A stretch of 64,000 nucleotides of DNA, from assembly GCA_035559535.1 (NCBI GenBank), contig DATMBG010000010.1, positions 25,832 to 89,831 on the forward strand. Reading direction: 5' to 3'. Below, in pieces: positions 2,005 to 49,901 of the stretch. The notes below the pieces were generated by a model. It saw nothing but the letters and a program-made list of their open reading frames with translations. It had not been told where the DNA came from and did not search any database. The stretch is from Candidatus Limnocylindrales bacterium (lineage in GTDB: Bacteria > Moduliflexota > Moduliflexia > Moduliflexales > JAUQPW01). Numbering within the stretch: the first letter of the stretch is position 1; each line of letters starts with the position of its first letter. A program made the position numbers and the translations under genes.

Positions 2005-2907
2005 TTACCTTCTTTGTCTTTTTCTTTCATTTTCTAAAGTCAGGCACAACTCGTAAGCTTCTTCCGGTTTCATGTCTTCATGGACCACTTTTCTCACAGC
2101 CTGAATCATGGCTACGGGATCTTCAGACTGGAATATGTTTCGCCCCATGTCAACCCCTGCGGCGCCTTGCTGAACAGCCTGGTAAGCCATTCTCAGGGCT
2201 TCGAGTTTCGGAATTTTTTTTCCGCCGGCAATAACGATGGGAACCGGACAGGAAGCCGTTATGGTCTCAAATCCTTCGGAAACATAATAGGTCTTAATAT
2301 AAGAGGCACCCAATTCTGCACATATTCGGGTTGCCAGGCGCAGGTATTTTGCATCCCGAACCATCTCTTTACCTACGGCGGTAACGCCCAAAACTGGAAT
2401 CCCATACCGATGGCCCAGATCTACCAGTCGGGTCATGTTGTGAATCGATTTGGTCTCGTATTCACCTCCAACAAAGACCTGGACGGCAAGAGCTGCAATA
2501 TTCAAACGAATGGCGTCTTCAATGTCAACGGCAATTTCTTCATTGGAGAGCTCTTTAAGGATGCTGGGACCTCCACTGGCCCGGAGGACAATCCCCTTTG
2601 TAAAGGTTGGAGGAATGGTAGAGCGCAGAATTCCTCGGGTACACATAAGGGTATCGGCGTAGGGAAGCAGGGGCAGGATCGTCACATCAACCCGTTCCAA
2701 TCCTGTGGTGGGTCCTAAAAAATATCCATGATCAATGGCCAGCATCACCGTACGGCCGGTTTCCGGACAAAATATTTTTGATAATCGATTTTTCATCCCC
2801 CAATCCAGCGAATTGGAACCTCGTAATCTGAACAGTTCATTTTCCATGGGAATATCCAAATAAAAATTGTGTGTTTCTTGTAAGCTGTCTTTATCTGCCA
2901 TTTTCAA
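2005..2907 (-). CDS. class I aldolase of the DhnA/LsrF/AroA-prime family (fructose-bisphosphate aldolase-like)
   Basis: The 300-aa product has a TIM-barrel aldolase signature ([12 protein letters not shown] ... GASYIKTYY ... PVPIVIAGG). It is on the same strand, immediately upstream of otsB. Confidence 0.6.
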
Positions 2908-2956
2908 CCTCCTTTTGTTAAGATGAGCGGGTTAGGATCTTTAAATGTACTGCATA

Positions 2957-2998
2957 CCCTCACCCCCGGCCCCTCTCCCACAAGAGGAGAGAGGAGTG
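2957..2998. repeat. GC-rich REP-like palindromic element (CCCTCACCCCCGGCCCCTCTCCCAC...GGAGAGAGG)
   Basis: Seen in the intergenic region downstream of the aldolase gene. The same family recurs at 3027-3072, 3153-3198, 21396-21448 and elsewhere. Confidence 0.6.
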
Positions 2999-3026
2999 AA
3001 GTAAAGCATCGGACCGCTTCTCCACA

Positions 3027-3072
3027 CTTCCCCTCTCCAGAAGCCTCGGGAGAGGAGTCAGGGGGTAAGGGC
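3027..3072. repeat. GC-rich REP-like palindromic element (CCCCTCTCC-loop-GGGAGAGG)
   Basis: Inverted repeat cccctctccagaagcctcgggagaggag. Confidence 0.55.
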
Positions 3073-3152
3073 CTGCGTGGTTCCTTTAAACAAATTAATC
3101 CTTATCGGGAAATATAAAAATCATTTTACCTAAAATTTGAAAGGATCGTTTT

Positions 3153-3198
3153 GCCCTCACCTCCTTCTCCCAAGGCTTCGGGAGAGGGGGGTGAGGGC
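3153..3198. repeat. GC-rich REP-like palindromic element
   Basis: gccctcacctccttctcccaaggcttcgggagaggggggtgagggc is a near-perfect 18-bp-arm inverted repeat. Confidence 0.65.
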
Positions 3199-3318
3199 AG
3201 AATAGCTATTTAAATTTACCTTTACCAAAGTACTATTCGAATTAGCAAGAAATTTCTAAAAACTTTTTATCGACATCCCGAGGTTGACAAGGATGAAAAC
3301 TTACCGTAGGTTCTTAAC

Positions 3319-3741
3319 ATGTATTTAACCCAATCCTATCTCAACCGGCTTCGACGGAACAAGGCCTTATATTTTCTTTACACGTGGGCCCCTAGTTTTA
3401 TCTATATGGCAGTTATTTTTTATCTATCTTCTCTATCCCATCCGCCGATACCCCGGAAGGCCCCCGATTATCTCCTGCATACCATCGAGTATTCTTTTTT
3501 AGGTATGCTTCTTCTTCGGAGTTTCTCGATGTATACCATTCCTGCCCATCAAGGTACCCGGTATTTACTTACTCTATGGACCACGACCCTGTATGGAATC
3601 TCGGATGAGATTCATCAGTTGTTTGTACCGCATCGAGAATTTAGCGTTCGCGATATAGTCGCCGATTTTGCTGGGGCTGTTTTGGCCGTGGGTATCTTTT
3701 GTCTGATTAGTTTTTTAAAAACCCGGGTATTTAAAAAATAA
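3319..3741 (+). CDS. VanZ-like family membrane protein
   Basis: 140-aa multi-TM protein with the DExHQxFVPxR motif typical of the VanZ family. Confidence 0.5.
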   Translation: MYLTQSYLNRLRRNKALYFLYTWAPSFIYMAVIFYLSSLSHPPIPRKAPDYLLHTIEYSFLGMLLLRSFSMYTIPAHQGTRYLLTLWTTTLYGISDEIHQLFVPHREFSVRDIVADFAGAVLAVGIFCLISFLKTRVFKK

Positions 3742-3753
3742 AGTCCTCTCCCT

Positions 3754-4131
3754 ATGATTTACGGTATAGGTATCGATGTGGTTCGTATCTCCCGATTAGA
3801 AGAGGTTATAAATCGAAGGGGGAAGCGATTTCTTGAACGCGTCTTTACCCCTCGGGAAATTGAATACTGTTCCAGCAAAGCCTTAAAAATTCAACATTAT
3901 GCCGTGCGATTTGCGGTCAAGGAAGCTGTATTCAAGGCTTTTGGAACCGGCTGGAGTCGAGGGGTAACCTGGCATGATGTAGAGGTGTTCAACGATGAAG
4001 GAGGTCGACCCCAGGTCAAACTCTCCGGTAAATGCCAGGAGCTTGCCGGGGAGCTCCAGGTCAAGCAGGTACTGATCAGTTTATCCCACGATGGAGATTA
4101 TGCCATTGCCCAAGCCCTTATCGAATGTTAA
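3754..4131 (+). CDS. acpS: holo-[acyl-carrier-protein] synthase (4'-phosphopantetheinyl transferase)
   Basis: MIYGIGIDVVRISRLEEV ... VKEAVFKAFGTG are canonical AcpS motifs; 125 aa. Confidence 0.85.
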   Translation: MIYGIGIDVVRISRLEEVINRRGKRFLERVFTPREIEYCSSKALKIQHYAVRFAVKEAVFKAFGTGWSRGVTWHDVEVFNDEGGRPQVKLSGKCQELAGELQVKQVLISLSHDGDYAIAQALIEC

Positions 4132-4155
4132 GGATAAAAAGAGGGGGTTTAAAGT

Positions 4156-4184
4156 ACCTCACTATCGAGTGAGGATAGTTTTGG
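4156..4184. terminator. hairpin (acCTCACTatcgAGTGAGGat) plus T-run; probable bidirectional intrinsic terminator between acpS and the convergent holin-like gene
   Basis: 7-bp stem, 4-nt loop, followed by agttttgg. Confidence 0.45.
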
Positions 4185-4200
4185 AAACACGGCTATCTTT

Positions 4201-4542
4201 CTAGACCCGGAGTAGGAAGTAAAATAAATTATTCAACAGGCTCAAAAGAACTGCTCCGATCAGAGTGGTAAGAGCATTATCGATTTCAAATCCTTCCACC
4301 AGCACATCGGTCAGATAGAGAAGAAACGCATTGATCACAAATACAAAGAGTCCAAAGGTCAAGATAACTGGAATAAAGCTGATAATGACCAGAAGCTTGA
4401 ATAAAAGAAACTGGAGAATCCCGTAAACTGCGGCAGCAGCCAGAGCTCTTTGAAAATCCTTAAGCCGAAATCCCGGCAAGATCTTCGCCACAATGATAAA
4501 GGACACAGCCGACAATAACCAACGTAAAAGGATGTGCATCAT
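4201..4542 (-). CDS. small 4-TM membrane protein, phage-holin-4-like family
   Basis: 113 aa with pattern LLSAVSFIIVAKILPGF...; resembles the PF04020-type putative holins as far as I can tell. Confidence 0.4.
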   Translation of the reverse strand: MMHILLRWLLSAVSFIIVAKILPGFRLKDFQRALAAAAVYGILQFLLFKLLVIISFIPVILTFGLFVFVINAFLLYLTDVLVEGFEIDNALTTLIGAVLLSLLNNLFYFLLRV

Positions 4543-4651
4543 AAAATCATTGGATCCATTGTCCCTTGCCTGTTATCTACCGATTATCACCCCTTTTAAT
4601 CCTTCGTCGTTTACAAAGAACAATGATACAAAGAACAATGAACCGGTCGGG

Positions 4652-5917
4652 TTATTCTACTAAATAAGGGATTGTCATAGGCCCTTGAGGAAGCACTGCT
4701 ATTCGAGCTTGAGGTCCATATTCTTTCAGAAGCCGATCCACAGTTGTTTCGATATTTTGACAGGGGAGAAGCTGGCATTTTTGGATCACATCATCCGGTA
4801 AAAGAGAGTATACATAAACTCTGGCTTTAAGCTGGATCATGGCCTGGATCTGGACCTGCCATTGATCGAACAGGGAGAAGTCTGGAGCATTAATCATTTC
4901 CAGCAACTCGGCCGGTGTAGACCGCATTTGAAGTAGTTTGCCGTAATTACCATGGTCCGGGATTCCCTGGGAGCATTCAGAAGCAATGATAATACTTCCT
5001 CCTTCCTTGACAATTCGAGAGGCTGCAGACATTCCTTTAACGGCCTGGTAGAGATTAAGATCCAGGGGATATCCGCTGTTGGTGGTAATTACAATATCAA
5101 AAGGCTTCGACACCGGACGCATGGCCGTCTTCTTAACGAATTCGGTTCCCTTACGGTGGGCCTGAACCAAATCACCGGCAAAAATTCCGGTAATTTCCTT
5201 TTTACTGTTAATGGTGACATTGGCCAGAAAAGTAGGTCGGGTCAACAGGGCAACCTCTAGCATTTCCTCGAAGATGGGGTTTCCGCTGGTAATTCCCCAG
5301 GAAGCGTTGGGATGTCCAATCATTTTGGCGCTATGATTATGCATGATAGAGTCGTGGCCGCTCACGCTGGGTAGTACGGCTTTAGGCCCTCCCGAAAATC
5401 CTGCAAAAAAATGAGGCTCGATAAACCCGGTCAAGATCTTAGCCGATGCCTCTAAATACTCCGAATTGATCCAGATATCTCCTCCAAATCGTGTCTTTCC
5501 CAGATAAGTTAATAGCTCTTTTTTATGAGGCTCATGGTTGATAACCCGATAATTGTCCATAACTTCCCGGCCGATTAAATCCATCAGCTCCTCTCGGGTA
5601 TTAGGACGATGGAGGCCAATTCCATTGATAAGGACCACCTGATTTCGCGGAACGTGGGATATTTCTTCTAGTAACCAGGGAAGGATCTTCTTATTAGGAG
5701 TCGGTCGGGTAATATCCGAAAAGACAATGGCCACGGTATCCGAAGACTTTATCAAATCCTGTAGAGGTGGCGTCCCTATGGGATGTCTTAAGGCTTCTAC
5801 AAAAGCCGATTTTTCATCTGCCAGGCCGGGAATAAACTCAGGTTCCACCACAGTTACCCGGTCATCCGGCAAATTTACTTCTAACCCGGTCTTTCCATAA
5901 GCAAGCTTAACTTTCAT
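4652..5917 (-). CDS. LarA-like (DUF2088) nickel-pincer-dependent racemase/epimerase family protein
   Basis: 421 aa; the N-terminus MKVKLAYGKTGLEVNLPD, the length and overall pattern match the lactate racemase family. No larB/larC/larE neighbours in the window. Confidence 0.55.
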   Translation of the reverse strand: MKVKLAYGKTGLEVNLPDDRVTVVEPEFIPGLADEKSAFVEALRHPIGTPPLQDLIKSSDTVAIVFSDITRPTPNKKILPWLLEEISHVPRNQVVLINGIGLHRPNTREELMDLIGREVMDNYRVINHEPHKKELLTYLGKTRFGGDIWINSEYLEASAKILTGFIEPHFFAGFSGGPKAVLPSVSGHDSIMHNHSAKMIGHPNASWGITSGNPIFEEMLEVALLTRPTFLANVTINSKKEITGIFAGDLVQAHRKGTEFVKKTAMRPVSKPFDIVITTNSGYPLDLNLYQAVKGMSAASRIVKEGGSIIIASECSQGIPDHGNYGKLLQMRSTPAELLEMINAPDFSLFDQWQVQIQAMIQLKARVYVYSLLPDDVIQKCQLLPCQNIETTVDRLLKEYGPQARIAVLPQGPMTIPYLVE

Positions 5918-6112
5918 AAGAGCACACTCCGTATTTAAGATTGTAAAGGGAGAAATCCATTTTCTCCGGGAAAACAGATTTCTTATAGGTCATGTAGATA
6001 GCTTCTAAGGGGAAGGTACTACGCTATAAGGGGAGACGTCAAGCTAATTTGAATTTAAACCTGACAAATTTTAAGACCGGGATATCCAGAATCCGTTAGT
6101 GGATCTTTAGGG

Positions 6113-9100
6113 TCAACTGACATTTTCCAGGTTTTCGATAGCTCCCAAAGCCTTGAGGGTTGCCTTCTGGGCCTCGGACAGGCCTTTAGCTCCCGTGATA
6201 TTCATCCCTTCATAAAGCCTATCATTTCTCAGTGTTTTGAGACATTTACCTGTTTGTACGTCCCAAAATTTAATAGTTTCATCCTCGCTGCCACTAATTA
6301 AAACACCCCCTGTAGGATCAAAGACCAGGGACCAAACTCCGTGGCGGTGACCGTACAAGGTTTTAAGACATTGGCCGGTAGGAACGCCCCATAACTTTAT
6401 CGTTTGATCTTCACTTCCACTGGCCAGGATGGTTCCATCCGGGCTAAAGGCCACCGACCAGACGTGGCTCAGATGTCCCCGGAAGGTTTTAAGGCACCGA
6501 CCTGTGCTTACACTCCATAAGCCAACGGTTTGATCGTCACTTCCACCAGCAAAGGTAGTGCCGTCCGGGCTAAAGGCAACGGATCGGACATAGCTGGTTC
6601 GCCCCTGGAAAGTTTCCAGGCACTGGCCCGTTCGAACATCCCATACTCTTACAATTCGATCGGCACTTCGACTCGCCAGCGTTTGCCCATCTTGACTGAA
6701 GGTTACAGATCTCACCCGAGCAGTATGCCCCTTCAAAGTTTTGAGGCATTGACCGGTGTGGACATCCCAGAGTTTAATGGTTTGATCATCGCTACTACTG
6801 GCCAAAATACGGTTATCGGGACTGAAGGCAAGGGATCTCACACGTTTCGTATGGCCTTTCAAGATTCTAAAACACTGACCCGTTCGGGCATCCCATAACC
6901 GAACCAGTTGATCTTCACTCCCACTGGCTAAAACACTTCCATCTGGACTAAGCGCAATAGCCCATATTCCGTTGGTATATCCCTGGAGAGTTCTAAGGCA
7001 CTGGCCCGTACGAACTTCCGATAAGCGGATAGTTTGATCTTCACTCCCACTGGCCAGCAGATGCCCATCAGGACTAAAGGCAATTGTGTTTACCCAATCG
7101 GTATGCCCCTGGAGCGTTCTAAGACACTCACCCGTCTTCATATTCCATAACTTGATGCTTTGATCATCGGAACCACTGCCCAAAATATTTCCTTTAGGAC
7201 TGAACGCAACAGACTTTATCCGATCGGTATGGCCACTCAAAATTTTAAAACATTGACCGGTCTGGACATCCCATAATCTTATGGTTTGGTCGGCACTTCC
7301 AGAAGCCAGGAGGTTCCCATCCGGGCTAAAAGCCACAGAATCTACCCAACCGGTGTGTCCCTGTAACATTTTGAGACATTCCCCGGTCTGGCTATTCCAG
7401 AGTCGGATCGTCTGGTCATCACTCCCACTGGCCAGGATATTTCCATCCGGGCTGAAAGCCACAGACCATACCCAATTTGTGTGTCCCTGGAGTGTTCTCA
7501 GGCATTCCCCGGTACGAACATCCCATAACTTGATGGTTTCATCATCACCGCTACTGGCCAGAATTTTTCCACCGGGATTGAAAACCACAGATCTTACCCA
7601 GTTGGTATGTCCTCGCAGGGTTTGAAAACACCGACCGGTCTGAATATCCCATAATTTAATCGTCTGGTCATCACTGCTACTGGCCAGCATGCTGCTGTCC
7701 GGGCTAAAAGCAATGGAAATTACAGAACCTGTATGCCCCTTAAACGTGAAAAGTAGCCGGGTATCTTCCACCTGCCAAAGGCGAATTTCACCATCGGCCC
7801 CCCCTGCGGCCAAAAACTTTCCATCGGAACTGAATACAACCGAAGAAATACTCCCGAAGGTTTTCGTGAAAACAGATTTACTCAAATCTGCGTGGGTAAA
7901 GTTTACATTATGCAGGACGACTCCCGGAAGATAAGCCTGCCAGATTGTTAAGTTCGAGAAATCATAGCTTCTCACATCGCTTTCCATCTGGACTAAAAGA
8001 TTCAGGGCATTCCCTCCGGTATATCCGGGTATAAGGGGAGATTTTTCTCGCAGGGTTGATAGAATATTGTCTAATTTACTTTCGACAACTTCTCTACCTA
8101 AGGTCTCAAGAAGTCTATCGGCCGTAGGTTTAAGGATAACCCGAATCTGACTATTTCGTATGGAATCTTTTTCCTGAGCTTTAAGGAGGGCATGACTGTT
8201 GAGGAAGATGGGGGTTTCTGTGGAAATCTCTTCACAAATCCGCCCTATTAATCGATTAATTGCATAATCCATGAGGGTAGGCGGGAGTGTAAAACGTTCG
8301 TTTTCATCTTTTTCAGCCAGAAATCGTTTTTGTAAAGATTCCAAAGCCTCCTTTAATTTCACTTTGGATACAGGATGAATCATATCTTCCAATAATTCCT
8401 TTATCGAAACAGGCTCACGACCGATGGCCAGCCAATAGAGAATATCTTCTTCCAGATTGGACAGGCAATTAAATTGTCGATTTAAAAGATCCTGAATATC
8501 TTCAAAGTTAAAGTTTGAGGCCTCCTGCTTTAGAAATTCTGTTATGTCTCCTCCAAAGGAGTGTTGGATGGTTGCAGAAACAAGCTTCAAGGCCAACGGA
8601 TTCCCGGCATAACGGTTAACCAGGGTTATCCAGGCTTCCTGGGTTCCGGATAAATTCTGATCTTTCAAGATTTCTCGAATTTCGGCCGGTCTTAATCCGC
8701 TTAAGTGTAAAGATCGAACCGGGGAGGTCCTACCCTCCAGGTGAAAGATTTCTTTGGGTTTCCTTCGACTGGTTAAGATCAAACAGCTCGAATGAGAGAT
8801 TTCCCCTATTCGTTGAATGAGCCAGCCATAGGGTTCATATCCCTCTGAATAATGGCCTAGATCGTCATGTTGGGAAAGGACCGATTCTAAGTTATCCAGG
8901 ACAATCAGGCAACGATGTCTCTGGAGATACTCCATCAAGAGGGTTATTCTCCGTTCCACACTTTTTCGCCGCTCTGGTTTTTGCTGGCGGGATAGAAATT
9001 GGAGAAAGTCCCCCAGCAGATCTTCTAGGGGAGGGGCCTCCCGGAGGGAACGCCAGATGACAAAATCAAAGCGATCTTTAACTTGCTCTGCCAGTTTCCT

Positions 9101-9562
9101 GGAAAGAGCCGTTTTACCTATTCCTCCCATGCCCAATAGGGCGATTATACGGCAGTGGTCGGTTCTAATCCATCGGGTTAGCTTACTCAGTTCCTCTTCC
9201 CGTCCATAAAAGGGTTCTGTTGGGGTCGCCTCCCCCCAGTCTTCTGAATAAGGTAGATCTTTCTGGGGTTTGATCCTGCTTTCAATATTCTGAATATGTG
9301 CTGTCAGCAAACTATCCCTGGCAGGTCCTTCTATCTTCATGTCCACGACCATAGCCGGGGGGGATTTAGAGAAGCCCCTACGAGCTTGAAGAAAGCCGAG
9401 AATTATAAGGGTAATGACCAGCAGGTCTAAGACAACCCAGTACAACCAGAAATGAGGCTGGATCCAGGTGAGCAGATAACTTAAAAACAGGCAACTTAAA
9501 AAGCCTATAACAATAATTAGACGCGCAAGCCTCGAGTAAGGTAGAAGGCAAAGTAATTTCAT
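6113..9562 (-). CDS. STAND NTPase: N-terminal 2-TM segment + NB-ARC/NACHT-like P-loop ([16 protein letters not shown]) + 14 WD40 repeats
   Basis: 1149 aa. Walker A and B are present. There are fourteen [22 protein letters not shown] repeats. The C-terminal tail ...[26 protein letters not shown] is typical of cyanobacterial-type WD40 proteins. Confidence 0.85.
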
Positions 9563-9659
9563 TTTAAGCTCCTGGGTCAGGAGTCAGAAATTCAGAATAA
9601 AGCTGAAAAATCATCCGATTGCCAAGGAACGCATGAGACGTAACATTAAATTTTACATT

Positions 9660-11087
9660 CTAACTTCTGGATTCAGACTCCTGGGTCGTTGTAACCGGTC
9701 TAAACTTCCAAAAATAATTATGGTATCCTTCCCCTTCATGCAGCTTGCGGAAGGTCAGTTCTACTTCCATTCCTATATGAACCTGATCCGGTTCACAGTC
9801 TGTCATCTGGGCATAGAAGCGTCCTCCACCTTCCAAATCTACCGTGACCATAACTACAGGAGGATTGGGTGTTGGAACCAGATAATCTTTTGTGAAAGTA
9901 AAAATCTTTCCCCTCGGATTGAGTCGGACTTCCGTAAAAGCGTTTTGCGTATTACATTTCCAACAGATATACCGGGAGGGATACTGAATTGCTCCGCAAA
10001 TCCGGCACTTCTGACCATAAAGTCGAAGGTTTTGCTTTTCTTCGCGCCAAAGGACAGGTAAAGAACTAAAAGGATTTAATCGCTCAACTTCAACCAACTT
10101 TCTAAACCGGAGATATTTTCCATACTGATTCAAATTTTTCTTACGGTGCAACTGTTCTGCCAGGATTCTTGTTCCACTTTGGGACTTAATGTTCTCCGTC
10201 ACTTCGAATAAAATGGCATCACTTCCTGACCCATAACTCAGCAGGACAATTTTTTCTCCCGGATTCGCCAATTCCAGAGCTGCGATCAACAAGAGAAAAG
10301 GATAAGCCGTACCGGTACATCCTATGGTATTTAAGAGAGGGTCCGGGAGATAGGCTTCTTTTTTAAATCCCAGGTCTTGAGAGAGACTTCGGAAGGTTCT
10401 GATGTCTGGGGCAAAGAAGAGGACTCTTGAAATATCGGTTTTATTCAAGCCCACTTTATTCAAAAGTCCTTCTAAAGCTCTTCTTATAAAAGTCCGATAT
10501 CCATAGGTTTCAATAAATTTTTGATCTCCGGATTTCACATATCGTTGATCTTCCGTTCTCCAGACATCGAGAAAATCTTGAGAATAAGAATAAAACGCCT
10601 GGATTTCTGCAACGATGCCTTCTTTTCCTATAGCCAGTGCAGCACCGGCATCTCCCAGGGTTGCTTCAAACCCACTTCCCGGTTCTCCAAGCCGAATATC
10701 CGAAGCGGCTATGAGGATTTTATCTGCAGAGCCTGCCTTTACAGCATCATAAGCAGCTCGAAAAGCCTGGGTAGAGGCACGTAAGGAACCGCTAAAATCG
10801 GCCGTAAATAGATCGGTGCTTAAATCGCCAACGGTAGCCAGGAGGGTAGCATTTTGATGTTCCCGATAAGGCATCGAGGTCGAAGCATAATAAAGGCCTT
10901 GATAGGTTCTGGGGTCTTCATCCTTCAGACAGATTCGGATGGCTTCTGCGGCCAGAGTAAGGCTATCCTCATCGTAGTTAGCAACGGCCCGCTCTCCGGT
11001 AAAAGATTCCCCCCAGATCTGACTTAATGTCTGACCATCAAGCCGATAATAGGGTATATAGGCTCCCCATCTGGTAATTCCGATCAT
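9660..11087 (-). CDS. thiolase-fold (HMG-CoA synthase / KAS-III-like) domain fused to a DUF35-type OB-fold/zinc-ribbon domain
   Basis: 475 aa; the N-terminus MIGITRWGAYIPYYRL... resembles HMGCS-like condensing enzymes. The C-terminus has CRICG...CWKC, a zinc ribbon plus OB fold as in DUF35 / ChsH2-type proteins. Confidence 0.5.
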   Translation of the reverse strand: MIGITRWGAYIPYYRLDGQTLSQIWGESFTGERAVANYDEDSLTLAAEAIRICLKDEDPRTYQGLYYASTSMPYREHQNATLLATVGDLSTDLFTADFSGSLRASTQAFRAAYDAVKAGSADKILIAASDIRLGEPGSGFEATLGDAGAALAIGKEGIVAEIQAFYSYSQDFLDVWRTEDQRYVKSGDQKFIETYGYRTFIRRALEGLLNKVGLNKTDISRVLFFAPDIRTFRSLSQDLGFKKEAYLPDPLLNTIGCTGTAYPFLLLIAALELANPGEKIVLLSYGSGSDAILFEVTENIKSQSGTRILAEQLHRKKNLNQYGKYLRFRKLVEVERLNPFSSLPVLWREEKQNLRLYGQKCRICGAIQYPSRYICWKCNTQNAFTEVRLNPRGKIFTFTKDYLVPTPNPPVVMVTVDLEGGGRFYAQMTDCEPDQVHIGMEVELTFRKLHEGEGYHNYFWKFRPVTTTQESESRS

Positions 11088-11199
11088 CTTCTCTCCAAAG
11101 AAGGATCTCCATCCCCAAAGCTTTACTTTACTGGTACGACTAACCCCTCTATCACCATCCCTTACGGGACCTCGCTCAGGTTTTCACTCCATCTGATAC

Positions 11200-11409
11200 T
11201 TACTCTTCCAGGGTAAATCCGACCTTTATTGTAACCTGCCAATAACCCACTCGACCATCTTCAATGGTCCCTCGGGTTTCAACGACCTGAAACCAGCGCA
11301 AGTGACGAACGGTTCTTGCCGCCCGGGTAAGGGCATTCTGGATGGCATCTTCTATAGAAGTGGTAGAAGAACCGGTTAGTTCAATCAATTTGTAAATATG
11401 GTCACCCAT
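11200..11409 (-). CDS. dodecin family flavin-binding protein
   Basis: The 69-aa product matches the dodecin pattern ([20 protein letters not shown]...LRWF.VVETRG.IEDG.V..WQV.IKVGF.LE). Confidence 0.75.
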
Positions 11410-12536: not shown

Positions 12537-12944
12537 TTAGAGTTGGTCTCGGGACATGACAAAAGCATGGACCTTCCAAACGTCCTCAATCGAAAATAAG
12601 TTACTCCAGGCAGGCATATTTGTGCCTTTACGCCCGTTCATCACAGTTTCCAGGAACTGTTTATCGGTGAGCTTGGTTTTAAAAAGGTTGGGACCGGAGC
12701 CACCTCGGCTCTTATGGCATCCCACACAACGGCTGCGGTAGATCCGTTCCCCCTCTTCGATTGCTTCCTTTTGTCCTAAATAAGGGTTCTTTAGCTCTTT
12801 ACCTGTATTGACCTGGGTTTGTTCGTCTCCGGCAGCGAAACCCTTTATCAGGGATAACCCCAGGAGGAGAAAGGTGACAAGCCCAATCCTGGATTGTGTT
12901 ATGCCAGACCGTTTCTTCACAAGATGTTTTTCCATTGGACTCAT
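12537..12944 (-). CDS. small mono-haem class I cytochrome c with signal peptide; candidate electron acceptor for the adjacent XoxF
   Basis: Single CVGCH haem motif, an N-terminal hydrophobic signal, and position immediately downstream of the PQQ dehydrogenase gene. Confidence 0.65.
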   Translation of the reverse strand: MSPMEKHLVKKRSGITQSRIGLVTFLLLGLSLIKGFAAGDEQTQVNTGKELKNPYLGQKEAIEEGERIYRSRCVGCHKSRGGSGPNLFKTKLTDKQFLETVMNGRKGTNMPAWSNLFSIEDVWKVHAFVMSRDQL

Positions 12945-13078
12945 GGGACTAACGCTAGGTTGTTGACTCAGGGATAGAATTTTAATATCCGGCCCTGACC
13001 GGGTAACCGATGCTTTCTCTGAACTTATCCGGGCTTAATTCCATTTTCAATTCCTGAGGGAGACAGGGCAGAGTTAAT

Positions 13079-14917
13079 TTACTCCTTTTTTATGGGTTCT
13101 GAGCCTTCTGTGGGTGGGAAGCCGTAACCGGGCAAGACCCTGCCCCCCAGGGTAGCGCCGGGTTCTCCAACCTTTGGCAGGGCGCCTGGAATGGTAACCA
13201 GATTTGACCCGGACGGAACCCGGGGAGGACCCCCTCCGTCAAGGGCAAACACCCAGATGTTACCGGCCTTCGGTTCCGTGTAATAGAAAATCATATCCCC
13301 GCCGATACCACCCGAAGGTACCACGACATACTGGATCCCGTCGAGTTCATAGGTAATAGGACTTCCTATGATACCTGAACCGGTCTGGAACTGCCAGAGT
13401 ACCGTGCCTGTGCGGGCATCGAGGGCCATAAAGTAGCCTCGCATATCCCCGGTAAAGACAAGGCCACTCTGGGTTGTCACAGCACCGGCCCAGAATGGAG
13501 CGGGGCCGGTTACCTTCCAGACGATCTTCCTATTGACTACATCAAACCCTACAAAGTTACCGGTATTTTCGCTTCTTAAGTACTGTTGATAATCGGCGCC
13601 CAGATACCACTCCCCCTTCGTAGGGGGTGCAAATTTGTTCTCCGCCCAAAACTTGAGACCCATCGCCCAATCGTTGGACAGGAAGAAAATGTAATTGAGG
13701 TCGGTATTGTAAGCCAGCGGCTGCCAGTCAATGGCTCCTTCTAAGCTGGGTACAACCGGCGCAACCTCCGGACCACCGGACTGGGCTACCATGTCTGGAT
13801 TTACCTTTGGCCGTCCGGTCTCAGGATCCAAACCCAAAGTCCAGTTAATCCCGGGAACTATGGGTTCACCGTAGATGAATTTACCATTTGTACGGTCGAG
13901 AACATAGAAGAAGCCGTTCTTATCATAATGCATTAAGGCCTTTACCTTCCTGCCTCCAAGGGTTACATCGGCAAGTACCGGGGTGCTGATGCTATCATAA
14001 TCCCAACAGTCATGGGGGGTATACTGGAAGCCCCATTTGATCTTGCCGGTATCGGCATCCATGGCGATGGTCGCCGCCGTCCATTTATTATCACCCTGGC
14101 GGATGTGGCAATTCCAGGGCCCGGCATTGCCTGTGTTCCAATAAACCAGATTGAGTTCTGGATCGAAGACCCCGGTTGTCCAGGTCGACCCTCCGCCGTT
14201 CTTCCAGGTATCTCCGGGCCAGGTTTCGTTCCCAGGCTCACCGGGTCCAGGAATGGTGTAGGTGGTCCACCGTAAATTACCGGTCTTCGCATCGTAAGCC
14301 TTAACGAAACCCCTTATGCCAAACTCACCCCCCGCCACACCGGTGAGTACCATATCCTTGACCACCAACGGTGCGCCGGTAATGCTATATCCTTGTTCCC
14401 AGTCGATCACTTTAGTTTCCCAGACAACTGCACCGGTATCTTTGTTGAGGGCTACCAGACGCGCATCCAGGGTACCGACATACACCATATCGCCAAGAAG
14501 TGCCACACCCCGGTTGTTAGATCCACAACAATATACACGCTCCACATCCTTCGAGAGTTTAGGGTCATAGCTCCACTTCTTCACGCCGGTACGGGCATCA
14601 ACTGCGAATACACGCGATTGATCGGCTGAAATATAAAGTACCCCATCATGAATCAACGGGGTTAGCTCCAGACCCCGATTCTCCCCACCCGTTGTAAATA
14701 CCCATGCAGGACGAAGCCGATGCACATTAGCAGGCGTAATTTGAGTGAGTGGAACATAGCGGTGACCCTCATAGGTCCGACTGTACATCAACCATTCTGA
14801 GGTGTTGGTATGTGCTTTAAGCAGGTTTTCATAGGTCACTTCACCTGCACCAGCCTTGGAATGGAAAAACCCGATAACTATTGCCATGATCATCACAAGG
14901 ACACTCAAGATCTCCAT
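13079..14917 (-). CDS. xoxF: PQQ-dependent methanol/ethanol dehydrogenase, XoxF-type (lanthanide-type DYD motif)
   Basis: Vicinal CC (VYCCGSNNRG), the catalytic region PHDCWDYD with Asp two residues after the catalytic Asp (a XoxF signature), and eight-bladed PQQ propeller repeats. The probable signal-peptide start is MEILSVLVMIMAIV at 14917; the track ORF runs to 15028. Confidence 0.8.
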   Translation of the reverse strand: MEILSVLVMIMAIVIGFFHSKAGAGEVTYENLLKAHTNTSEWLMYSRTYEGHRYVPLTQITPANVHRLRPAWVFTTGGENRGLELTPLIHDGVLYISADQSRVFAVDARTGVKKWSYDPKLSKDVERVYCCGSNNRGVALLGDMVYVGTLDARLVALNKDTGAVVWETKVIDWEQGYSITGAPLVVKDMVLTGVAGGEFGIRGFVKAYDAKTGNLRWTTYTIPGPGEPGNETWPGDTWKNGGGSTWTTGVFDPELNLVYWNTGNAGPWNCHIRQGDNKWTAATIAMDADTGKIKWGFQYTPHDCWDYDSISTPVLADVTLGGRKVKALMHYDKNGFFYVLDRTNGKFIYGEPIVPGINWTLGLDPETGRPKVNPDMVAQSGGPEVAPVVPSLEGAIDWQPLAYNTDLNYIFFLSNDWAMGLKFWAENKFAPPTKGEWYLGADYQQYLRSENTGNFVGFDVVNRKIVWKVTGPAPFWAGAVTTQSGLVFTGDMRGYFMALDARTGTVLWQFQTGSGIIGSPITYELDGIQYVVVPSGGIGGDMIFYYTEPKAGNIWVFALDGGGPPRVPSGSNLVTIPGALPKVGEPGATLGGRVLPGYGFPPTEGSEPIKKE

Positions 14918-15509
14918 GGCATACCCGGTAGCAGCTCCTTTACATCTCCCAACTACAGGGATTTCGGGCTTCAGTAAACCGGGTTTGTTACCCTCCCCCT
15001 TTTTCCAGAAATCTTTAAGCAGGGTCATCGTTACCTCCTTTCCTCTGACCAGGACACGGTCTGTTACCCGACAAAGTTTTAACTTTTATCAATTGTTTGT
15101 AACTCCATGTCTCTGAGGCTTTTAATGGCCAACACCTTACCCTATGATAAAATTTTGTGTTATTTATAGCCCCTTACTCTCCGGCCTTAATTAGGTAAAT
15201 CCACCTATTAGAATAGGATCCCACACCGCTCCTCCGAAGCCTGCCTTCCGGTGGGTTTTACTCCACAGGGGCTTATGTTTTTGTTATACTCCTCGAGGAA
15301 TATCCGACAAGTCTTATCCTAATTTTGACTTAGAAAATGTCAAGAAAAAACGCGGAAGAAGCCAAGGAAGCAATCGAATCCAGTCCTTTGGATCCTCTTA
15401 CCTCCTTGCCTTTAACAGGAGGGACAACAGGACAAATGCCCGTTGCACCGGCATGAAGAACTCTTCAAAGGATTGCTTATCTTGATCATTAAAGGGGACA
15501 ATCCCATAC

Positions 15510-15652: not shown

Positions 15653-18073
15653 TTAGTTTACGGGTTGTAGAACACCTCTTCCTTCTTCCTGCAGGGTACC
15701 TTGCCCTTGAACAGACGTTTGAAAATTTACCGTAACACGTAATGCTCTTAACCCCTGGATGCCTTGAAGATCCTCCAACTCCAAATCTTCTACTTCACCG
15801 GTCAGGTAACCGGTATCCTGGAGATAGTCGATATATTGCCGATATTCTTGAGCTTCTTTAGGTTGAGAATAAACAATGGCGATCTTACCGGGTTGAGTTA
15901 ACCGCTCCTCCCCACCTTTAATCGTGGCTTTATCGATGCGTTTCTTCACAATTTCGTATCGGATGTTGTAGGCCCCATCCACATCGAATTGCTTTTCATC
16001 GATGCGGAACCGAATGGACATGGGCATATTCTGAACCAGGATCAAATGAGTTGTTTCTAAAGGAAGCTTCAAACTTCCTTTTAACTCTTCGGTTTTCCTG
16101 GCTATCCCACAGACCGTCATGAGCTGCCAGAGGCGAAGATTTTTCAAATAAAGTAAATCGAATTTTCCATCCTCAACCAGGGAGGCACCGATATAAATCC
16201 CGTGATCCACACCATCGGTTTTATGCTTTTCAAAATAGTGGGGAAACATAGCCTGGGCTTTTTCTTCTTCTTCATCGAGATAATCTGAGATGGTATCATT
16301 GATTCGGGCAACGCTTTCTTCAAAATCCTTCCGCTTACGATAGATAATTCCCAATTGTGGGTCCAGGGCAGATCGATAAGCCTGAATTTTATCCTGGATA
16401 CCCGGACCGAAATCCTTCAAGGTATCGAACAGAGGCTCAACTTCCCGACGTAAGAAATCAAGCAAAGTGATTTCATCTCCGGAGCCCAGACTCACTTCTA
16501 CTTTTGCTATTTTGTTATTGATCCGGTAAACAAGTTCATCGAGAATAGGAAGGGATTTATAACTCGCCGCCAGGAGAATAATTTCCCTGACCAGCGTCAG
16601 GTGCTCGATTAAATCAGCCTGAATCGCTGCATTACGCTGCGTAGAGGAGCCCCGGATATCTGTGGCCCCAAATAAGGGATAAACGTTATCGAATACAATC
16701 TGCTCTATTTCCTCGTGGATACCCCGATTACGTTTCTCAATATAGTTAAGAACGGCTTTTCGAAAACGCCAATCTACCGAAGGATGGATGGCGGTGTACT
16801 TTTTCTTGATGATGGCCTGAACACGATTATCCAGCTCTTCCATACTTCGATTAACGGCCACAGAGAACAAAGGAAGAACTTCCCCTAACTTCAGGGCATT
16901 TAAGGCATTCAGTCCGCCGGGGTTCGGGGATCCCAATTCCATGGTCCCGATCAGTTTATCCTGATAGTAGAGAGGCGCAACGATCATGCTTCGAATCCCT
17001 TGGGCGAGGATCTGATCTTCAACCGGCGAGCGATGGGGATAAGTTACAAGATCTTCAATGATTAGCAAATTCCCCTGTTTAACCGAACGTTCATAAATAG
17101 AACCGGCAAAGTCAGAAGTTTTAAAATGTTGAGAATCGGAGAAGATACAACATTTCTCGAGTTTACGTCCATAATTAATCAGAAATACCTGATCCCCCTG
17201 GATAGCTGCAAGTCCCAACACCAGATCCGGTAACCTGAGGAGTGTTCTTAGCTTTTCCTGCAAGCTGCGGAATTTTTTATTGGAGACAATAGATTCCCTG
17301 TCTATCAAATCTCGCTTTAAAGATGAAAGAACCTCTTGATCTGTGACATCGGTAGCCGTAATGACCGTAAAACCGTGAAACTCAAAATTCTCAGGGGGTA
17401 TGAGTTCCATCCAGGTCTTTAAGTTCGTCAGGTTATTGAAGAGGTATTTTTTTTCCTCATCGGTCAGGAGTTTGACTTCTCCGACTTTTTTTACCTCACA
17501 AAATCGTGGATCAAAGTTGAGCTTAAAGTGACGGTCTAATCCCGTTTCAGGATCTCGGGTTGTAAATATCAGAGGATATTCGAACTCAAATTTTACATCG
17601 TAAAACTTCTGGAGAATCTGGCTATAGGCTTTCAACAGGGTACCATAGGTCATGGCCCGCTCATCTAAATGCGTTCGGCCGATGAAGTTCTTATCTTCCA
17701 TCAGAAATCGCTTAAAAGATGGCGTGGCATAGAAAATCCGGAAGTGATAAGGAATAATAGCCGCCAGATAATCTCGATCCCAAAAAGCCGGTGGAAAAAC
17801 CAGAGTCATCAGCATATCTATGAGTTCTTTGTGCTTCTCGAGGATCGAGAGGTCTTCAATAGGACCTAATAACTCAGGTACCTTCTCTAATTCTTCTCGA
17901 ACTTTTTTAATAAGGGGAGCCTTAAAGGCCTGATCCCAGGATCCGGTCTGATTCCAGAAGTCTATAAAGGGTGAGAAACTGAGGACACATTTAAAAGGAA
18001 ACTTCCGGGTATTAGAGATCTGGATAAGGCTCTCGTCAAAAACCAGATTAAATTGTTTATTGATTGTAATCAT
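15653..18073 (-). CDS. large cytoplasmic protein with central GAF-like domain, function unknown
   Basis: 806 aa; the central segment ...LIIEDLVTYPHRS...LIGTMELGS... is GAF-like. The rest has no motif I recognise. Confidence 0.45.
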   Translation of the reverse strand: MITINKQFNLVFDESLIQISNTRKFPFKCVLSFSPFIDFWNQTGSWDQAFKAPLIKKVREELEKVPELLGPIEDLSILEKHKELIDMLMTLVFPPAFWDRDYLAAIIPYHFRIFYATPSFKRFLMEDKNFIGRTHLDERAMTYGTLLKAYSQILQKFYDVKFEFEYPLIFTTRDPETGLDRHFKLNFDPRFCEVKKVGEVKLLTDEEKKYLFNNLTNLKTWMELIPPENFEFHGFTVITATDVTDQEVLSSLKRDLIDRESIVSNKKFRSLQEKLRTLLRLPDLVLGLAAIQGDQVFLINYGRKLEKCCIFSDSQHFKTSDFAGSIYERSVKQGNLLIIEDLVTYPHRSPVEDQILAQGIRSMIVAPLYYQDKLIGTMELGSPNPGGLNALNALKLGEVLPLFSVAVNRSMEELDNRVQAIIKKKYTAIHPSVDWRFRKAVLNYIEKRNRGIHEEIEQIVFDNVYPLFGATDIRGSSTQRNAAIQADLIEHLTLVREIILLAASYKSLPILDELVYRINNKIAKVEVSLGSGDEITLLDFLRREVEPLFDTLKDFGPGIQDKIQAYRSALDPQLGIIYRKRKDFEESVARINDTISDYLDEEEEKAQAMFPHYFEKHKTDGVDHGIYIGASLVEDGKFDLLYLKNLRLWQLMTVCGIARKTEELKGSLKLPLETTHLILVQNMPMSIRFRIDEKQFDVDGAYNIRYEIVKKRIDKATIKGGEERLTQPGKIAIVYSQPKEAQEYRQYIDYLQDTGYLTGEVEDLELEDLQGIQGLRALRVTVNFQTSVQGQGTLQEEGRGVLQPVN

Positions 18074-48107: not shown

Positions 48108-49901
48108 ATGCGTAAACGAATTCATTTTTCTGTTTGGTATTTATTGGGAGTTTTTCTTCTTCTTGCCATCGTTCATGGTTTTGTTAACTCCCAAAGTGCC
48201 GAACAGATCCCTTACAGCAAATTTAAAGAGTATCTGAATAAAGGTCGGGTTAAGTCTGTTTATATTGGAGTCGATATCATTCACGGCGAGGTTATAAGCG
48301 AGGAAGGGGGTCGGAAGGGAAAACCTTTTGTGGTGGCCAAAGTAGACGATCCGGATCTTGTAAGGGAGTTGGAAAAGAATAAGGTAGAATATGCCGGACA
48401 GTTTGAGAACCCCTGGGTCAAGGAACTGGTCTCCTGGGTTCTTCCTATGTTGATTCTCTTTGCTGTATGGATCGTTGTTTTCAAAAAAGTCGGACCCGGG
48501 GGGAGTATAATGTCGTTTGCGAAAACGAAAGCGAAGCTTTATTCTAAAGATGAAACGAACGTAACCTTTGATGACGTGGCCGGTGTCGAAGAAGCCAAAG
48601 AAGAGCTCATAGAGCTAATTGACTTTTTAAAAAATCCGGAAAAGTTTCGAAATCTTGGAGGTAGAGTTCCCAAGGGGTTTCTTCTGATCGGCCCACCGGG
48701 AACTGGTAAGACTTTATTGGCCAGGGCGGTAGCCGGAGAGGCCAAAGTACCTTTTTTCAGTATGAGCGGATCCGAGTTTGTTGAGATGTTTGTAGGGGTA
48801 GGAGCCGCCAGGGTTCGGGATCTTTTTCATCAGGCCCAGCAAAAGGCTCCCTGTATTATTTTTATTGATGAACTGGATGCCCTGGGTAAGACCCGGGGTG
48901 GGAGCTCCATCGGTGGTCATGATGAACGGGAACAGACCTTGAACCAGCTTTTGGTAGAGATGGATGGATTTGATTCCCGAAAAGGGATCATTGTTATGGC
49001 TGCAACGAACCGTCCTGAGATTTTGGATCCGGCTCTGCTACGACCTGGGAGATTCGATCGTCAAATTTTAGTAGACCGTCCGGATATCAATGGTCGAGAA
49101 AAAATTCTTCAGGTCCATGCCCGGCAGGTAAAATTAGGAAAAGAGGTGGATCTCCGCGTTATAGCCTCTCGAACCCCTGGGTTTGTGGGGGCAGATCTGG
49201 CCAATGTAGTCAATGAAGCGGCTCTGTTGGGGGCTCGACGGAATAAATCTGAGGTCGGTATGCCGGAACTTGAAGAAGCCATAGATCGCGTGGTTGCAGG
49301 ATTGGAAAAGAAAAGCCGGATTATGAGTAAAAAGGAAAGGGAAATCGTGGCCTACCATGAATCTGGTCATGCTTTGGTGGCCGCCTTTCTTCCCCATACT
49401 GACCCGGTTCATAAAGTTTCGATTATTCCCCGGGGTATTGCCGCCCTGGGCTATACCCAGTACCTGCCCGGGGAAGATCGCTATTTAATGACAAAATCCG
49501 AACTCCTCGATCGGCTTTGTGTAGCTCTGGGAGGCCGGGTAGCCGAAGAGATCATCTTCGGTGAGGTTTCGACCGGGGCCCATGACGACCTCCAAAAGGC
49601 TACCCAGATTGCCCGAAGAATGGTCAAAGAATTTGGTATGAGTGAGCGGTTGGGGCTCGTAACCTTTGAACGGGAAAGAAAATCTCTATTTTTAGATAAT
49701 GGATTAGGAGTTGGAAAAGACTATAGCGAGCAAACGGCCTATGAAATAGACCTGGAGGTCAAGAGACTTATCGATGAAACCTATGATCGGGTCAAGGAGA
49801 TTCTGGAAACCCATCGAGATAAACTAGAGCACCTGGCTAAAGTTTTGTTGGAAAAGGAGGTTGTGGAAGGCGAGGAGTTTAAACGCATTATCGCTTTGTA
49901 A
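48108..49901 (+). CDS. ftsH: ATP-dependent zinc metalloprotease FtsH
   Basis: TM anchor, AAA+ ([23 protein letters not shown]-like Walker B) and the HESGHAL zinc site; 597 aa. Confidence 0.9.

Follow-up and report, generated by a model that had tools for sequence, protein, structure and literature searches.

A bacterial NB-ARC/WD40 STAND protein with an N-terminal transmembrane hairpin, and a two-helix membrane module associated with STAND NTPases

Introduction

Bacterial STAND proteins that resemble NLR receptors are now viewed as pattern-recognition receptors, and the outputs characterized for them are nearly all soluble enzymes, namely nucleases, proteases, SIR2, and TIR. To our knowledge, there is no experimental characterization of those bacterial STAND proteins that carry a WD40 sensor of the Apaf-1 type. 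The protein considered here, referred to below as the query, is encoded within a 64,000-nucleotide stretch (the window) of contig DATMBG010000010.1 (GenBank assembly GCA_035559535.1). It joins two N-terminal transmembrane (TM) helices to an NB-ARC-type NTPase and a series of WD40 repeats, and its N-terminal hairpin is a diverged member of a two-helix (2TM) module that is found almost only with STAND NTPases.

The arrangement of an NB-ARC NTPase core (NOD) followed by tandem WD40 propellers, with P-loop, Walker B, and GxP motifs, is shared with Apaf-1 and other AP-ATPases, the class with which the GxP motif is associated. Apaf-1 has 15 blades, compared with 13 in the query. The query also lacks a CARD or caspase domain, has a 2TM hairpin at the N-terminus instead, and differs further in its pentapeptide-like connector and in the MNITG...LGA tail with which it ends. 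By analogy with Apaf-1, ligand-induced oligomerization would be expected of the query too. Bacterial “Apaf-1 orthologues” with WD40 sensors, closest in cyanobacteria, are noted in a 2026 survey of STAND proteins (PMC13581612), and the query belongs to this class as it is described there. The cyanobacterial NB-ARC/WD40 family (Nostoc, Calothrix, and Scytonema) has 45-58% NOD identity to the query together with the same motifs, connector, repeat units, and tail. It differs in that the host of the query is not a cyanobacterium and in that most members have a helix-turn-helix (HTH) domain at the N-terminus.

In the resistosome of the plant CC-NLR ZAR1, which also has an NB-ARC NOD, the N-terminal helices form a funnel or channel with an acidic ring in its pore. 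The ZAR1 helix is soluble and enters the membrane only after activation, whereas the hairpin of the query is constitutively membrane-embedded; the sensor is of the WD40 rather than the leucine-rich repeat type. The resemblance of the two N-termini, including the channel that oligomerization is proposed to drive, is one of analogy and not of homology. Two-helix membrane modules are also found at the output end of SLATT, CBASS, and Panoptes systems, where the 2TM effectors are activated by oligomerization or by ligand (PMC7159879; PMC12657230). The module described here differs from these in being fused to STAND proteins rather than regulated by nucleotides, and the query has no Pfam SLATT match.

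TM segments are listed among the domain types of bacterial STAND and NACHT proteins in several reports (bioRxiv 10.1101/2022.07.19.500537; PMC13581612; PMC13001434). The KAP/PifA and YobI-family Tmn proteins, covered in the last of these (PMC13001434), likewise combine sensing and membrane output in one membrane-anchored P-loop NTPase; they belong to other NTPase clades, carry TM segments within or after the P-loop domain, and lack a WD40 sensor. In the Avs/AVAST and bNACHT proteins, as in the query, a single chain unites an effector, an NTPase, and a sensor built of repeats. The query differs from Avs in having WD40 rather than TPR repeats and in its setting outside a defence island, as judged with PADLOC on 10 neighbouring genes. 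Identity with Avs was rejected because no Avs family model matched beyond the P-loop (Avs4, E = 0.017 with PADLOC and 0.032 with NCBIfam, the latter at 11.4 bits against a cut-off of 1500). Assignment to the STAND-TPR proteins associated with ribosomally synthesized and post-translationally modified peptides (RiPPs) was similarly rejected: the FxSxx_TPR model (FxsT, NF040586) gave 34.8 bits against a cut-off of 300 and covered the P-loop only, and HaaT (NF041717) was not matched by the query.

Results

The query gene is a single intact open reading frame (ORF) with an ATG start, and the complete coding sequence (6113..9562) specifies 1149 amino acids plus a stop codon. These coordinates and this length agree with the original prediction, which left the strand unstated; the gene, and all features of it given below, lie on the minus strand. 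An exact-sequence look-up in public collections returned the same protein at NCBI as HWP46018.1, “NB-ARC domain-containing protein,” from a metagenome-assembled genome (MAG) labelled Candidatus Limnocylindrales. An AGGAG ribosome-binding site (9569..9573) is located 7-11 nucleotides 5' of the ATG, which supports use of the first ATG and thereby translation of the TM hairpin. Further in-frame ATG codons are present at positions 71 and 75, neither of which is preceded by a comparable Shine-Dalgarno sequence.

The two N-terminal TM helices of the original prediction were confirmed by hydropathy analysis and by an AlphaFold2 model. A Kyte-Doolittle scan (19-residue window, threshold >1.6) identified strongly hydrophobic segments at residues ∼13-33 and 38-59 only, the maximum elsewhere in the protein being 0.99. 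These segments define TM helix 1 (9464..9526) and TM helix 2 (9386..9451), which were modelled as helices spanning residues 9-33 and 38-61, respectively. Together, they form the N-terminal 2TM hairpin module, assigned to residues 1-66 (9365..9562) from a match to the module hidden Markov model (HMM) described below and the in-register alignment that it gave. Given that positive charges lie on both cytoplasmic sides (K2, R11, and R14 on one; R61, R62, and K66 on the other) and that the inter-helix loop comprises ∼5 residues, the hairpin adopts an N-in/C-in topology with all downstream parts in the cytoplasm, as the ATPase requires. A flexible tether of ∼45 residues thus joins the hairpin to an NTPase-WD40 body that is entirely cytoplasmic. 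The linker (residues 67-107; 9242..9364) falls largely within a stretch of low predicted confidence (pLDDT below 50 for residues 57-103) and is the most variable region of the protein, 51% of its sites differing among orthologues. With a periplasmic loop of only ∼5 residues, the membrane-localized sensor raised as an option in the original prediction is unlikely to be one of external signals.

A cleavable signal peptide was ruled out, because there is no A-x-A site, a second TM helix follows, and the ATPase must be cytoplasmic. A lipoprotein was ruled out by the lack of a lipobox (Leu precedes C5, and C5 is not conserved). Within residues 1-120, no SLATT or other Pfam family was detected at E ≤ 1 beyond sub-threshold, chance-level matches to Wzy_C and 7TMR-DISM (E ∼ 0.02). 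The hydrophobicity of both helices is retained across orthologues, and the mean Kyte-Doolittle value of TM helix 1 is 2.0-2.3 in all five. TM helix 1 carries a stripe of small or polar residues (G20, S23/C24, S28, and T32). Asp46, in mid-membrane in TM helix 2, is invariant in the five orthologues while 47% of hairpin sites vary. Asp46 and the stripe are the features that most suggest, from sequence, a role for the hairpin beyond that of an anchor.

Relatives of the hairpin were sought in an exhaustive HMMER search of 1.84 billion representative sequences, using a two-sequence profile built from residues 1-70 of the query and from P0027, the only protein among the 120 closest homologues of the query that has a hairpin of the same type. 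The search returned 57 proteins (P0171-P0227), nearly all of which were matched at the extreme N-terminus. The consensus of the module is LLYLLLALLTVAIGIVTNIATSQLPEWLKPYLWLSWPLLGVL, with the signature LLTVAVGIVTNIATsQlPeWLqPYLWLSWPiLGVL. Downstream of it, Pfam identified NACHT with FGE-sulfatase, NACHT with HEAT, NB-ARC-like with TPR, TIR, alpha/beta-hydrolase, TPR, and PD40 domains, and the module is also carried by NOD-WD40 proteins of the query's own family (P0186 and P0188). No Pfam model covers the module, and 10 module-bearing proteins had no family of any kind across it. The sole trace in the model libraries was in NCBIfam NF041717 (HaaT), whose first ∼80 positions the module matches weakly.

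In a metagenome scan, 22 further module loci were recovered, and all module ORFs complete enough to be judged were either fused to a STAND NTPase or directly next to one, the NTPases being of the NACHT, STAND-TPR, or TIR-STAND type. A word-indexed profile search with the module alignment yielded 13 short fragments only. As assessed by these comparisons, the module is conserved, lacks a dedicated model in Pfam or NCBIfam, and occurs almost only with STAND NTPases. In three of the metagenome loci, the reading frame appears to be interrupted or shifted. At L038 (2444-5578), a module ORF (2444-2635) and a TIR-STAND-TPR ORF (2639-5578) are in the same frame with one stop codon between them, which may reflect read-through in a 2TM-TIR-STAND fusion, decay to a pseudogene, or an error in the sequence. 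At L028 and L034, the module and STAND-TPR sequences are in overlapping frames, suggesting frameshifts.

The relationship of the query to this module was assessed with an HMM built from 55 of the other proteins, with the query excluded. The query scored 27-30 bits against this model (E = 3.8e-7 to 8e-11, depending on search space), with 27.1 bits corresponding to E = 3.8e-7 in the six-frame set and 1.7e-8 in the family set; scores of this size against a query-free model indicate that the relationship is real. Two orthologues (P0122 and L021) scored 31.7 bits, and the L003 orthologue only 7.7 bits. In the query, the near-invariant positions of the module (N24, A26, P31, W39, and W42) are aligned in register. 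Of these, only W39 and W42 are retained. The query and the module also have in common their place at the extreme N-terminus, their length, their two-helix topology, and the W.QP..WL.W signature of the loop and TM helix 2; the query has Asp in TM helix 2 where the module family has Gly, and its orthologues lie further still from the consensus. Judged from this alignment, the hairpin of the query is a diverged derivative of the module and not a typical member. The W.QP..W loop was considered as a strict functional motif of the query lineage and was rejected, as it is lost in L003 and partly lost in P0123.

The position of the module in systems of several genes was visible in two kinds of locus. 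Two metagenome sequences (L023:8751-12917 and L024:3724-7890, from JGI metagenomes 3300024433 and 3300009529) contain a tightly packed cassette of three genes, encoding a DUF4062-TIR protein of 417 residues, a 2TM-module protein of 144 residues whose gene overlaps that of the DUF4062-TIR protein by 4 bp, and a P-loop NTPase-TPR protein of 814 residues. The 144-residue protein consists of the 2TM module plus a C-terminal helix. All three proteins have in common a motif of ∼50 residues (K.RRL..LE.Q.A..G...P.H...EIEDLR.EI..L), placed at the C-terminus of the DUF4062-TIR and 2TM proteins and at the N-terminus of the NTPase. Pairwise local scores for this motif were 132-187 (z = 24-31), with none of 500 shuffles scoring as high. 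No Pfam or NCBIfam model for it was found. It looks like a homotypic adaptor that links a STAND sensor to two outputs. The cassette NTPase belongs to the AHPYP..ENFTGR...IGGMGKSAL subfamily, to members of which the module is N-terminally fused elsewhere (P0184, P0176, and P0200). The fused and cassette forms together indicate that the module is used both in an “all-in-one” form and in a form split via the adaptor. Effector-associated domains and NLR/Bell pairs follow the same split logic (PMC7159879; bioRxiv 10.1101/2020.01.06.895854). Since the 2TM protein of the cassette is recruited in parallel with a TIR effector, the hairpin is placed at the output end. The adaptor motif was not found in the query or in its 120 homologues.

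In the second kind of locus (L015), a 2TM-TIR gene adjoins a gene for a soluble TIR-nSTAND1 protein, and the TIR domains of the two are very similar. The gene order there (L015:619-9525; JGI 3300027914) is PocR-histidine kinase, receiver, HATPase-TIR (585 residues), 2TM-TIR (245 residues), TIR-nSTAND1-HATPase (858 residues), and two more receivers; three consecutive TIR proteins are thus encoded amid two-component signalling genes.

The body of the protein was assigned to the NB-ARC type of NTPase, in agreement with the original prediction. The NOD module (residues 108-520; 8003..9241) comprises a pre-NOD motif, an NB-ARC-type P-loop NTPase, and helical and winged-helix domains, as delimited from Pfam, PDB, Foldseek, and homologue comparisons. 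In a Pfam scan made without the WD40 region, in which NTPase matches fell within residues 118-300, NB-ARC scored 53.7 bits (cut-off 23.5; E = 2.4e-14) over residues 122-224, corresponding to the first 108 of 248 profile positions. NACHT scored 41.5 bits on the same stretch (cut-off 26.7; E = 1.6e-10). Of the HMM comparisons proposed with the original prediction, that between NACHT and NB-ARC placed both above threshold with NB-ARC the higher, and that of the N-terminus, made here on residues 1-120, gave no effector family. The closest sequence matches in PDB were NB-ARC proteins and none was a NACHT protein; they included the plant NLRs NRC4, MLA13, Sr35, and ZAR1 (6j5t), and also archaeal PH0952 and AfsR.

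The Walker A motif GMGGIGKT (residues 144-151; 9110..9133) contains five residues (G144, G146, G147, G149, and K150) that are invariant in an alignment of 53 sequences. In the Walker B motif LIVLDNLE (residues 219-226; 8885..8908), the same alignment shows no variation at D223 and N224 and conservation of at least 90% at E226; both motifs are kept in the orthologues. The LTSRR motif with the sensor-1 Arg (residues 263-267) and the GxP motif AGNPLAL (residues 319-325) are likewise invariant or at least 90% conserved. An MHD-like motif, LMDYA, is present at residues 430-434. The catalytic motifs are intact and under purifying selection. The AlphaFold2 model, built with the same 53 sequences, had a mean pLDDT of 80. 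When it was compared with PDB by Foldseek, Apaf-1-like structures (3sfz, 3shf, 3j2t, and 5juy) were aligned over 1160-1237 columns with E values of 1e-40 to 4e-45; for murine Apaf-1 (3sfz), ∼1200 columns were aligned at E = 3.7e-45 and an identity of ∼20%. TM-scores against these structures were low (∼0.25) as a result of a different domain arrangement. The sequence matches and the model together identify the body of the query as an AP-ATPase that resembles Apaf-1 and carries propellers in tandem.

Between the NTPase and the propellers lies a segment that the original prediction had overlooked, a pentapeptide-repeat-like connector (residues 521-566; 7865..8002). In the same Pfam scan, the Pentapeptide model matched residues 535-566 with 19.9 bits, just under its cut-off of 20.2, and AlphaFold2 placed short strands there. 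The connector is highly conserved in the family, with 89% identity among orthologues, and this conservation and the near-threshold match underlie its putative assignment. The WD40 region (residues 567-1112; 6227..7864), predicted to form ligand-sensing tandem beta-propellers, was found to comprise 13 units of exactly 42 residues, in place of the 14 repeats and two seven-bladed propellers originally predicted. Pfam WD40 also matched 13 stretches, and the AlphaFold2 model contained 48 strands, corresponding to 12 blades, plus one unmodelled unit (residues 643-685; 7508-7636). This unit had a pLDDT of 26-37 despite a normal repeat sequence, probably as an artefact of alignment depth, the homologues differing in repeat number; the 13 blades may be split 6+7 or otherwise between the two propellers. 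The propellers matched the Nostoc “highly repetitive propeller” 2ymu_A in Foldseek with 45% identity (E = 1e-50).

The WD units have a mean identity of 54% at the amino acid and 60% at the nucleotide level and are equal in length in the orthologues, which rules out rapidly recombining repeats of the fungal HET-E kind. The C-terminal tail (residues 1113-1149; 6116..6226) carries a conserved motif, with a modelled helix at residues 1130-1138. It is of the cyanobacterial type, as originally proposed: of the 120 best homologues, 24 close with the ending [PL]YE[GR]MNITGxxGLTxAQ, those with names among the 24 being mostly cyanobacterial, and the motif is kept in the orthologues.

A search with the NOD (residues ∼105-569) returned more than 2500 homologues in the collection, typically at 45-58% identity, nearly all of the named ones being cyanobacterial. 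Common to this family are the pre-NOD motif DWGEA..FYGRE, the P-loop, a DN.E Walker B motif, TSR, GNPLAL, the pentapeptide-like connector, and WD units of 42 residues. Every one of these elements is present in the query, which can accordingly be assigned to a cyanobacterial-type NB-ARC/WD40 family. A scan of genome contigs with residues 1-565 and exact peptide patterns found seven loci, consisting of one orthologue and cyanobacteria, a number too small for a survey of phyletic range. The family is present on 83 plasmids, all cyanobacterial, of which 41 are conjugative or mobilizable; no phage-borne relatives of the family were found.

The region preceding the NOD was surveyed in the 120 best homologues, whose sequences were trimmed before the NOD and the N-termini clustered. 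An HTH domain of the Cro/C1-XRE, LuxR/GerE, or sigma-70 region 4-like type occupies this position in ∼80 of them (∼70%). TIR (P0011), DUF4062 (P0032), and BTAD-type (P0113) domains occur once each. This pattern suggests an N-terminal slot that is freely exchanged, as is typical of NLR-like proteins. Two other classes have TM helices in the slot. A 2TM hairpin unrelated in sequence to the module of the query was found in 12 of the 120 (P0008, P0009, P0015, P0024, P0029, P0046, P0050, P0053, P0071, P0087, P0108, and P0109), and the presence of this second, unrelated 2TM class within one NOD-WD40 family indicates repeated, independent gain of membrane N-termini. In nine (P0001, P0031, P0059, P0062, P0063, P0074, P0076, P0077, and P0093), a single glycine-zipper helix beginning at Met1 (MDAIAFLTVVGGIIGIIAGSVQVLDYVEKRREK) is followed by a low-complexity linker and the NOD; its position is reminiscent of that of the first helix in HeLo, Bell, and CC-NLR domains, which inserts into the membrane. 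The placement of the TM helices in the slot usually held by an effector, as originally noted, is thus borne out by the HTH, TIR, DUF4062, BTAD, and TM N-termini of relatives. With TM N-termini in approximately one-quarter of the closest homologues, such an architecture is not as unusual as had been implied. No conserved partner gene was found beside the TM-type homologues.

The location of the gene in a same-strand run among metabolic genes, outside any obvious defence island, was confirmed. The neighbours on the same strand encode a LarA-like racemase, a thiolase-like/OB-fold protein, dodecin, an HpcH aldolase, cytochrome c, and a PQQ dehydrogenase, and PADLOC gave zero matches on 10 neighbouring genes. 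Neither radical-SAM nor RiPP genes adjoin the STAND gene. Scans for promoters and terminators across 4100-11300 gave counts at the level of shuffled sequence and were uninformative on operon structure. An Rfam scan of the whole 64-kb window returned zero RNA families, hence no rRNA for taxonomy. Two genes downstream, a Phage_holin_4_2 (PF04020) protein of 113 residues with four TM segments is encoded at 4201-4542 (minus strand); its position is constant in all orthologous loci. Upstream on the same strand are a methanol/ethanol-family PQQ dehydrogenase with the adjacent cytochrome c (12537-15028, minus strand) and a GAF-domain protein of 806 residues (15653-18073, minus strand), which are part of a conserved syntenic block around the STAND gene.

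Orthologues of 1149 residues were found at the same locus, between the OB-fold and LarA-like genes, in every related assembly checked. Their identity to the query is 80-93%. In the most distant pair (query and L003), the STAND proteins are 80% identical and the flanking genes 88-95%. For this pair, at dS ∼ 0.67, the ratio of nonsynonymous to synonymous substitution rates (dN/dS) is 0.155 for the whole STAND gene and 0.04-0.075 for its neighbours, so the gene evolves 2-4-fold faster than they do. By region, dN/dS is 0.50 in the hairpin and 0.17 in the NOD. Within the WD units, it is 0.39 at the variable positions (4, 5, 7, 16, 17, 31, 33, and 42) and 0.08 at scaffold positions, an ∼5-fold difference. 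The L003 orthologue (L003:9527-12976) has Gln in place of the sensor-1 Arg266, a residue at least 90% conserved in the family (CLLLISQRK compared with CLILTSRRK), with Walker A and B intact.

The horizontal acquisition suggested in the original prediction is plausible, given a cyanobacterial family, its 83 plasmids, and a non-cyanobacterial host. Recent transfer was rejected on the basis of synteny and of host-like composition (GC content of 0.470 in the gene and 0.461 in the window; third-position GC of 0.456 in the gene). With the same locus and length in all relatives and such a composition, any transfer must have been old. The data support an old inter-phylum acquisition, apparently from the cyanobacterial pool, followed by long, stable chromosomal retention, and do not accord with an island gene that arrived recently or turns over rapidly. 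The MAG label at NCBI, Candidatus Limnocylindrales (Chloroflexota), conflicts with the relatives of two other proteins of the window. The FtsH protein (48108-49901) is 79% identical within the lineage and 64-66% identical to proteins of Nitrospinota, Thermodesulfobacteriota, and “Deltaproteobacteria,” and a PQQ dehydrogenase at least 90% identical to that of the window is labelled candidate division NC10. These affinities indicate that the host belongs to a poorly classified, non-cyanobacterial lineage.

Discussion

The features described above are best accommodated by a single-chain, membrane-tethered, NLR-like switch, in which oligomerization of the NOD clusters the hairpins so that the membrane is perturbed or ions are conducted. 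We adopt this as a tentative working model that falls somewhat short of an even chance of being correct. In such a switch, the variable top surface of the 13 WD40 blades would be the binding site of a ligand in the cytoplasm, most likely a protein. Ligand binding would free the NOD for nucleotide exchange and ATP-dependent oligomerization, which would gather the N-terminal hairpins in the inner membrane. Once brought together, the helices, which bear the small/polar stripe and the conserved Asp46, might perturb the membrane or conduct ions, and depolarization would be followed by growth arrest or death. By analogy, the hairpin would be a pre-inserted counterpart of the helix funnel of the plant CC-NLR resistosome. 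A conflict or stress response, to phage or another invader, would be the likely biological setting. The main support for an effector at the membrane comes from the cassette and L015 loci, which suggest it and fall short of proof. The membrane-disrupting effector envisaged in the original prediction has thus gained comparative support, from a module that is nearly always fused or adjacent to STAND NTPases and from its parallel placement with TIR in the cassette, and is not proven.

Several observations weigh against this model. At the level of the hairpin, the N24, A26, and P31 positions of the module (the TN.AT..P motif) are lost in the query; these losses, the hairpin dN/dS of 0.50, and the 7.7-bit score of L003 suggest that only membrane insertion is maintained. 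The disordered tether of ∼45 residues would allow only loose coupling between NOD and hairpin, and the fusion of the module to TIR, hydrolase, and sensor repeats fits a localization or assembly module equally well. At the level of the gene, the number of repeats does not vary and their identity to one another is only moderate, the same locus and length in all related assemblies are unlike the usual patchy distribution of defence genes, none of the 10 neighbours matched PADLOC, and there are no other STAND, TIR, or adaptor genes in the 64-kb window. The proposed link to defence and cell death accordingly finds no local support. In the family as a whole, the commonest output is probably transcriptional, given the HTH majority among the closest homologues. 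DNA-binding domains are counted by Kibby et al. among the “adaptor” outputs of NACHT proteins, which makes this majority compatible with a role in conflict. A role in defence is therefore unproven, and a role of the hairpin solely as an anchor is a serious rival.

If it is an anchor, the hairpin would localize an Apaf-1-like signalling scaffold whose output is the recruitment or regulation of proteins in housekeeping or stress, leaving the membrane undamaged. Synteny and length that are constant across all of the related assemblies checked, the lack of defence neighbours, and a hairpin sequence that is relaxed (dN/dS of 0.50, with 47% of sites varying) while its hydrophobicity is kept would all be expected of an anchor, as would the loss of the TN.AT..P motif. 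The occurrence of the module on TIR, alpha/beta-hydrolase, TPR, and PD40 proteins resembles that of a localization tag, and most close homologues are of the HTH type and probably regulators. However, the protein has no other recognizable output domain, TM-type homologues have no conserved partner gene, and an invariant Asp in mid-membrane would be costly for a plain anchor. The recruitment of a protein made up of 2TM module and adaptor only, in parallel with a TIR effector, would also be odd for an anchor, and on balance we consider this explanation, the main rival, somewhat less likely than the switch. The module might instead act as a homotypic membrane adaptor, pairing with the same hairpin on separate effectors (2TM-TIR or 2TM-hydrolase) and recruiting them to the activated STAND protein in the manner of an effector-associated domain or amyloid motif. 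Its presence both on STAND NTPases and on small TIR or alpha/beta-hydrolase proteins accords with this, and the highly conserved loop of the module and its polar stripe suggest specific packing. Such pairing is nevertheless improbable: no second module ORF occurs in the 64-kb window or beside the module-STAND genes examined, the link in the two systems with visible context is TIR-TIR similarity or the ∼50-residue motif and not the hairpin, and most of the conserved module positions are lost in the query.

The gene could also be a decaying relic, an NLR-like gene acquired long ago whose effector module is degenerating and whose function is reduced or lost. The faster evolution relative to its neighbours (2-4-fold; 80% compared with 88-95% identity), the drift of the hairpin from the module consensus, and the Gln at the near-invariant sensor-1 position (Arg266) in L003 could be signs of such decay. 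They are offset by an intact ORF of exactly 1149 residues in five assemblies at dS ∼ 0.67, by dN/dS well below 1 in every region, and by conservation of Walker A and B, GxP, the tail, and D46, such that decay has little probability. Alternatively, the start may have been mis-called, translation from Met71 or Met75 giving a soluble protein with the hairpin sequence as an untranslated leader. ATG codons are available in frame at both positions, and most family members begin near the equivalent of residue 100 in the NOD alignment of the query. This is very improbable indeed, because the AGGAG lies 7-11 nucleotides before the first ATG and codons 71 and 75 have nothing comparable, the 70 codons that precede them form an open frame of equal length in five orthologues with a dN/dS of 0.50 and conserved hydrophobicity, and the region matches an independent protein-module HMM.

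The clustering model may be extended to an undescribed class of STAND-specific membrane effectors, in which a pre-inserted hairpin would become an ion-conducting ring upon NOD oligomerization and would be supplied either as a fused domain or as an adaptor-tagged subunit. The query would then be a horizontally acquired chromosomal suicide or dormancy switch, long retained in this non-cyanobacterial lineage, with a lineage-specific Asp46 lining the pore. This extension is speculative and unlikely as it stands. The gene itself adds one more member to a very large, already annotated family, and TM effectors of bacterial STAND proteins form a recognized category, so that the value of the present analysis lies in the lead at the level of the module rather than in the locus. 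That lead is an uncatalogued 2TM hairpin associated with STAND proteins, together with an equally uncatalogued adaptor of ∼50 residues that links 2TM, TIR, and STAND-TPR proteins.

If the hairpin is only an anchor, it points to membrane-proximal NLR signalling in bacteria. If, on the other hand, the model in which clustering leads to membrane damage is true, the query would provide a simple system for the passage from NOD oligomerization to a lesion in the membrane, and would parallel plant resistosomes in evolutionary terms. The finding of the module and its adaptor makes the idea of a membrane effector of bacterial NLRs directly testable.

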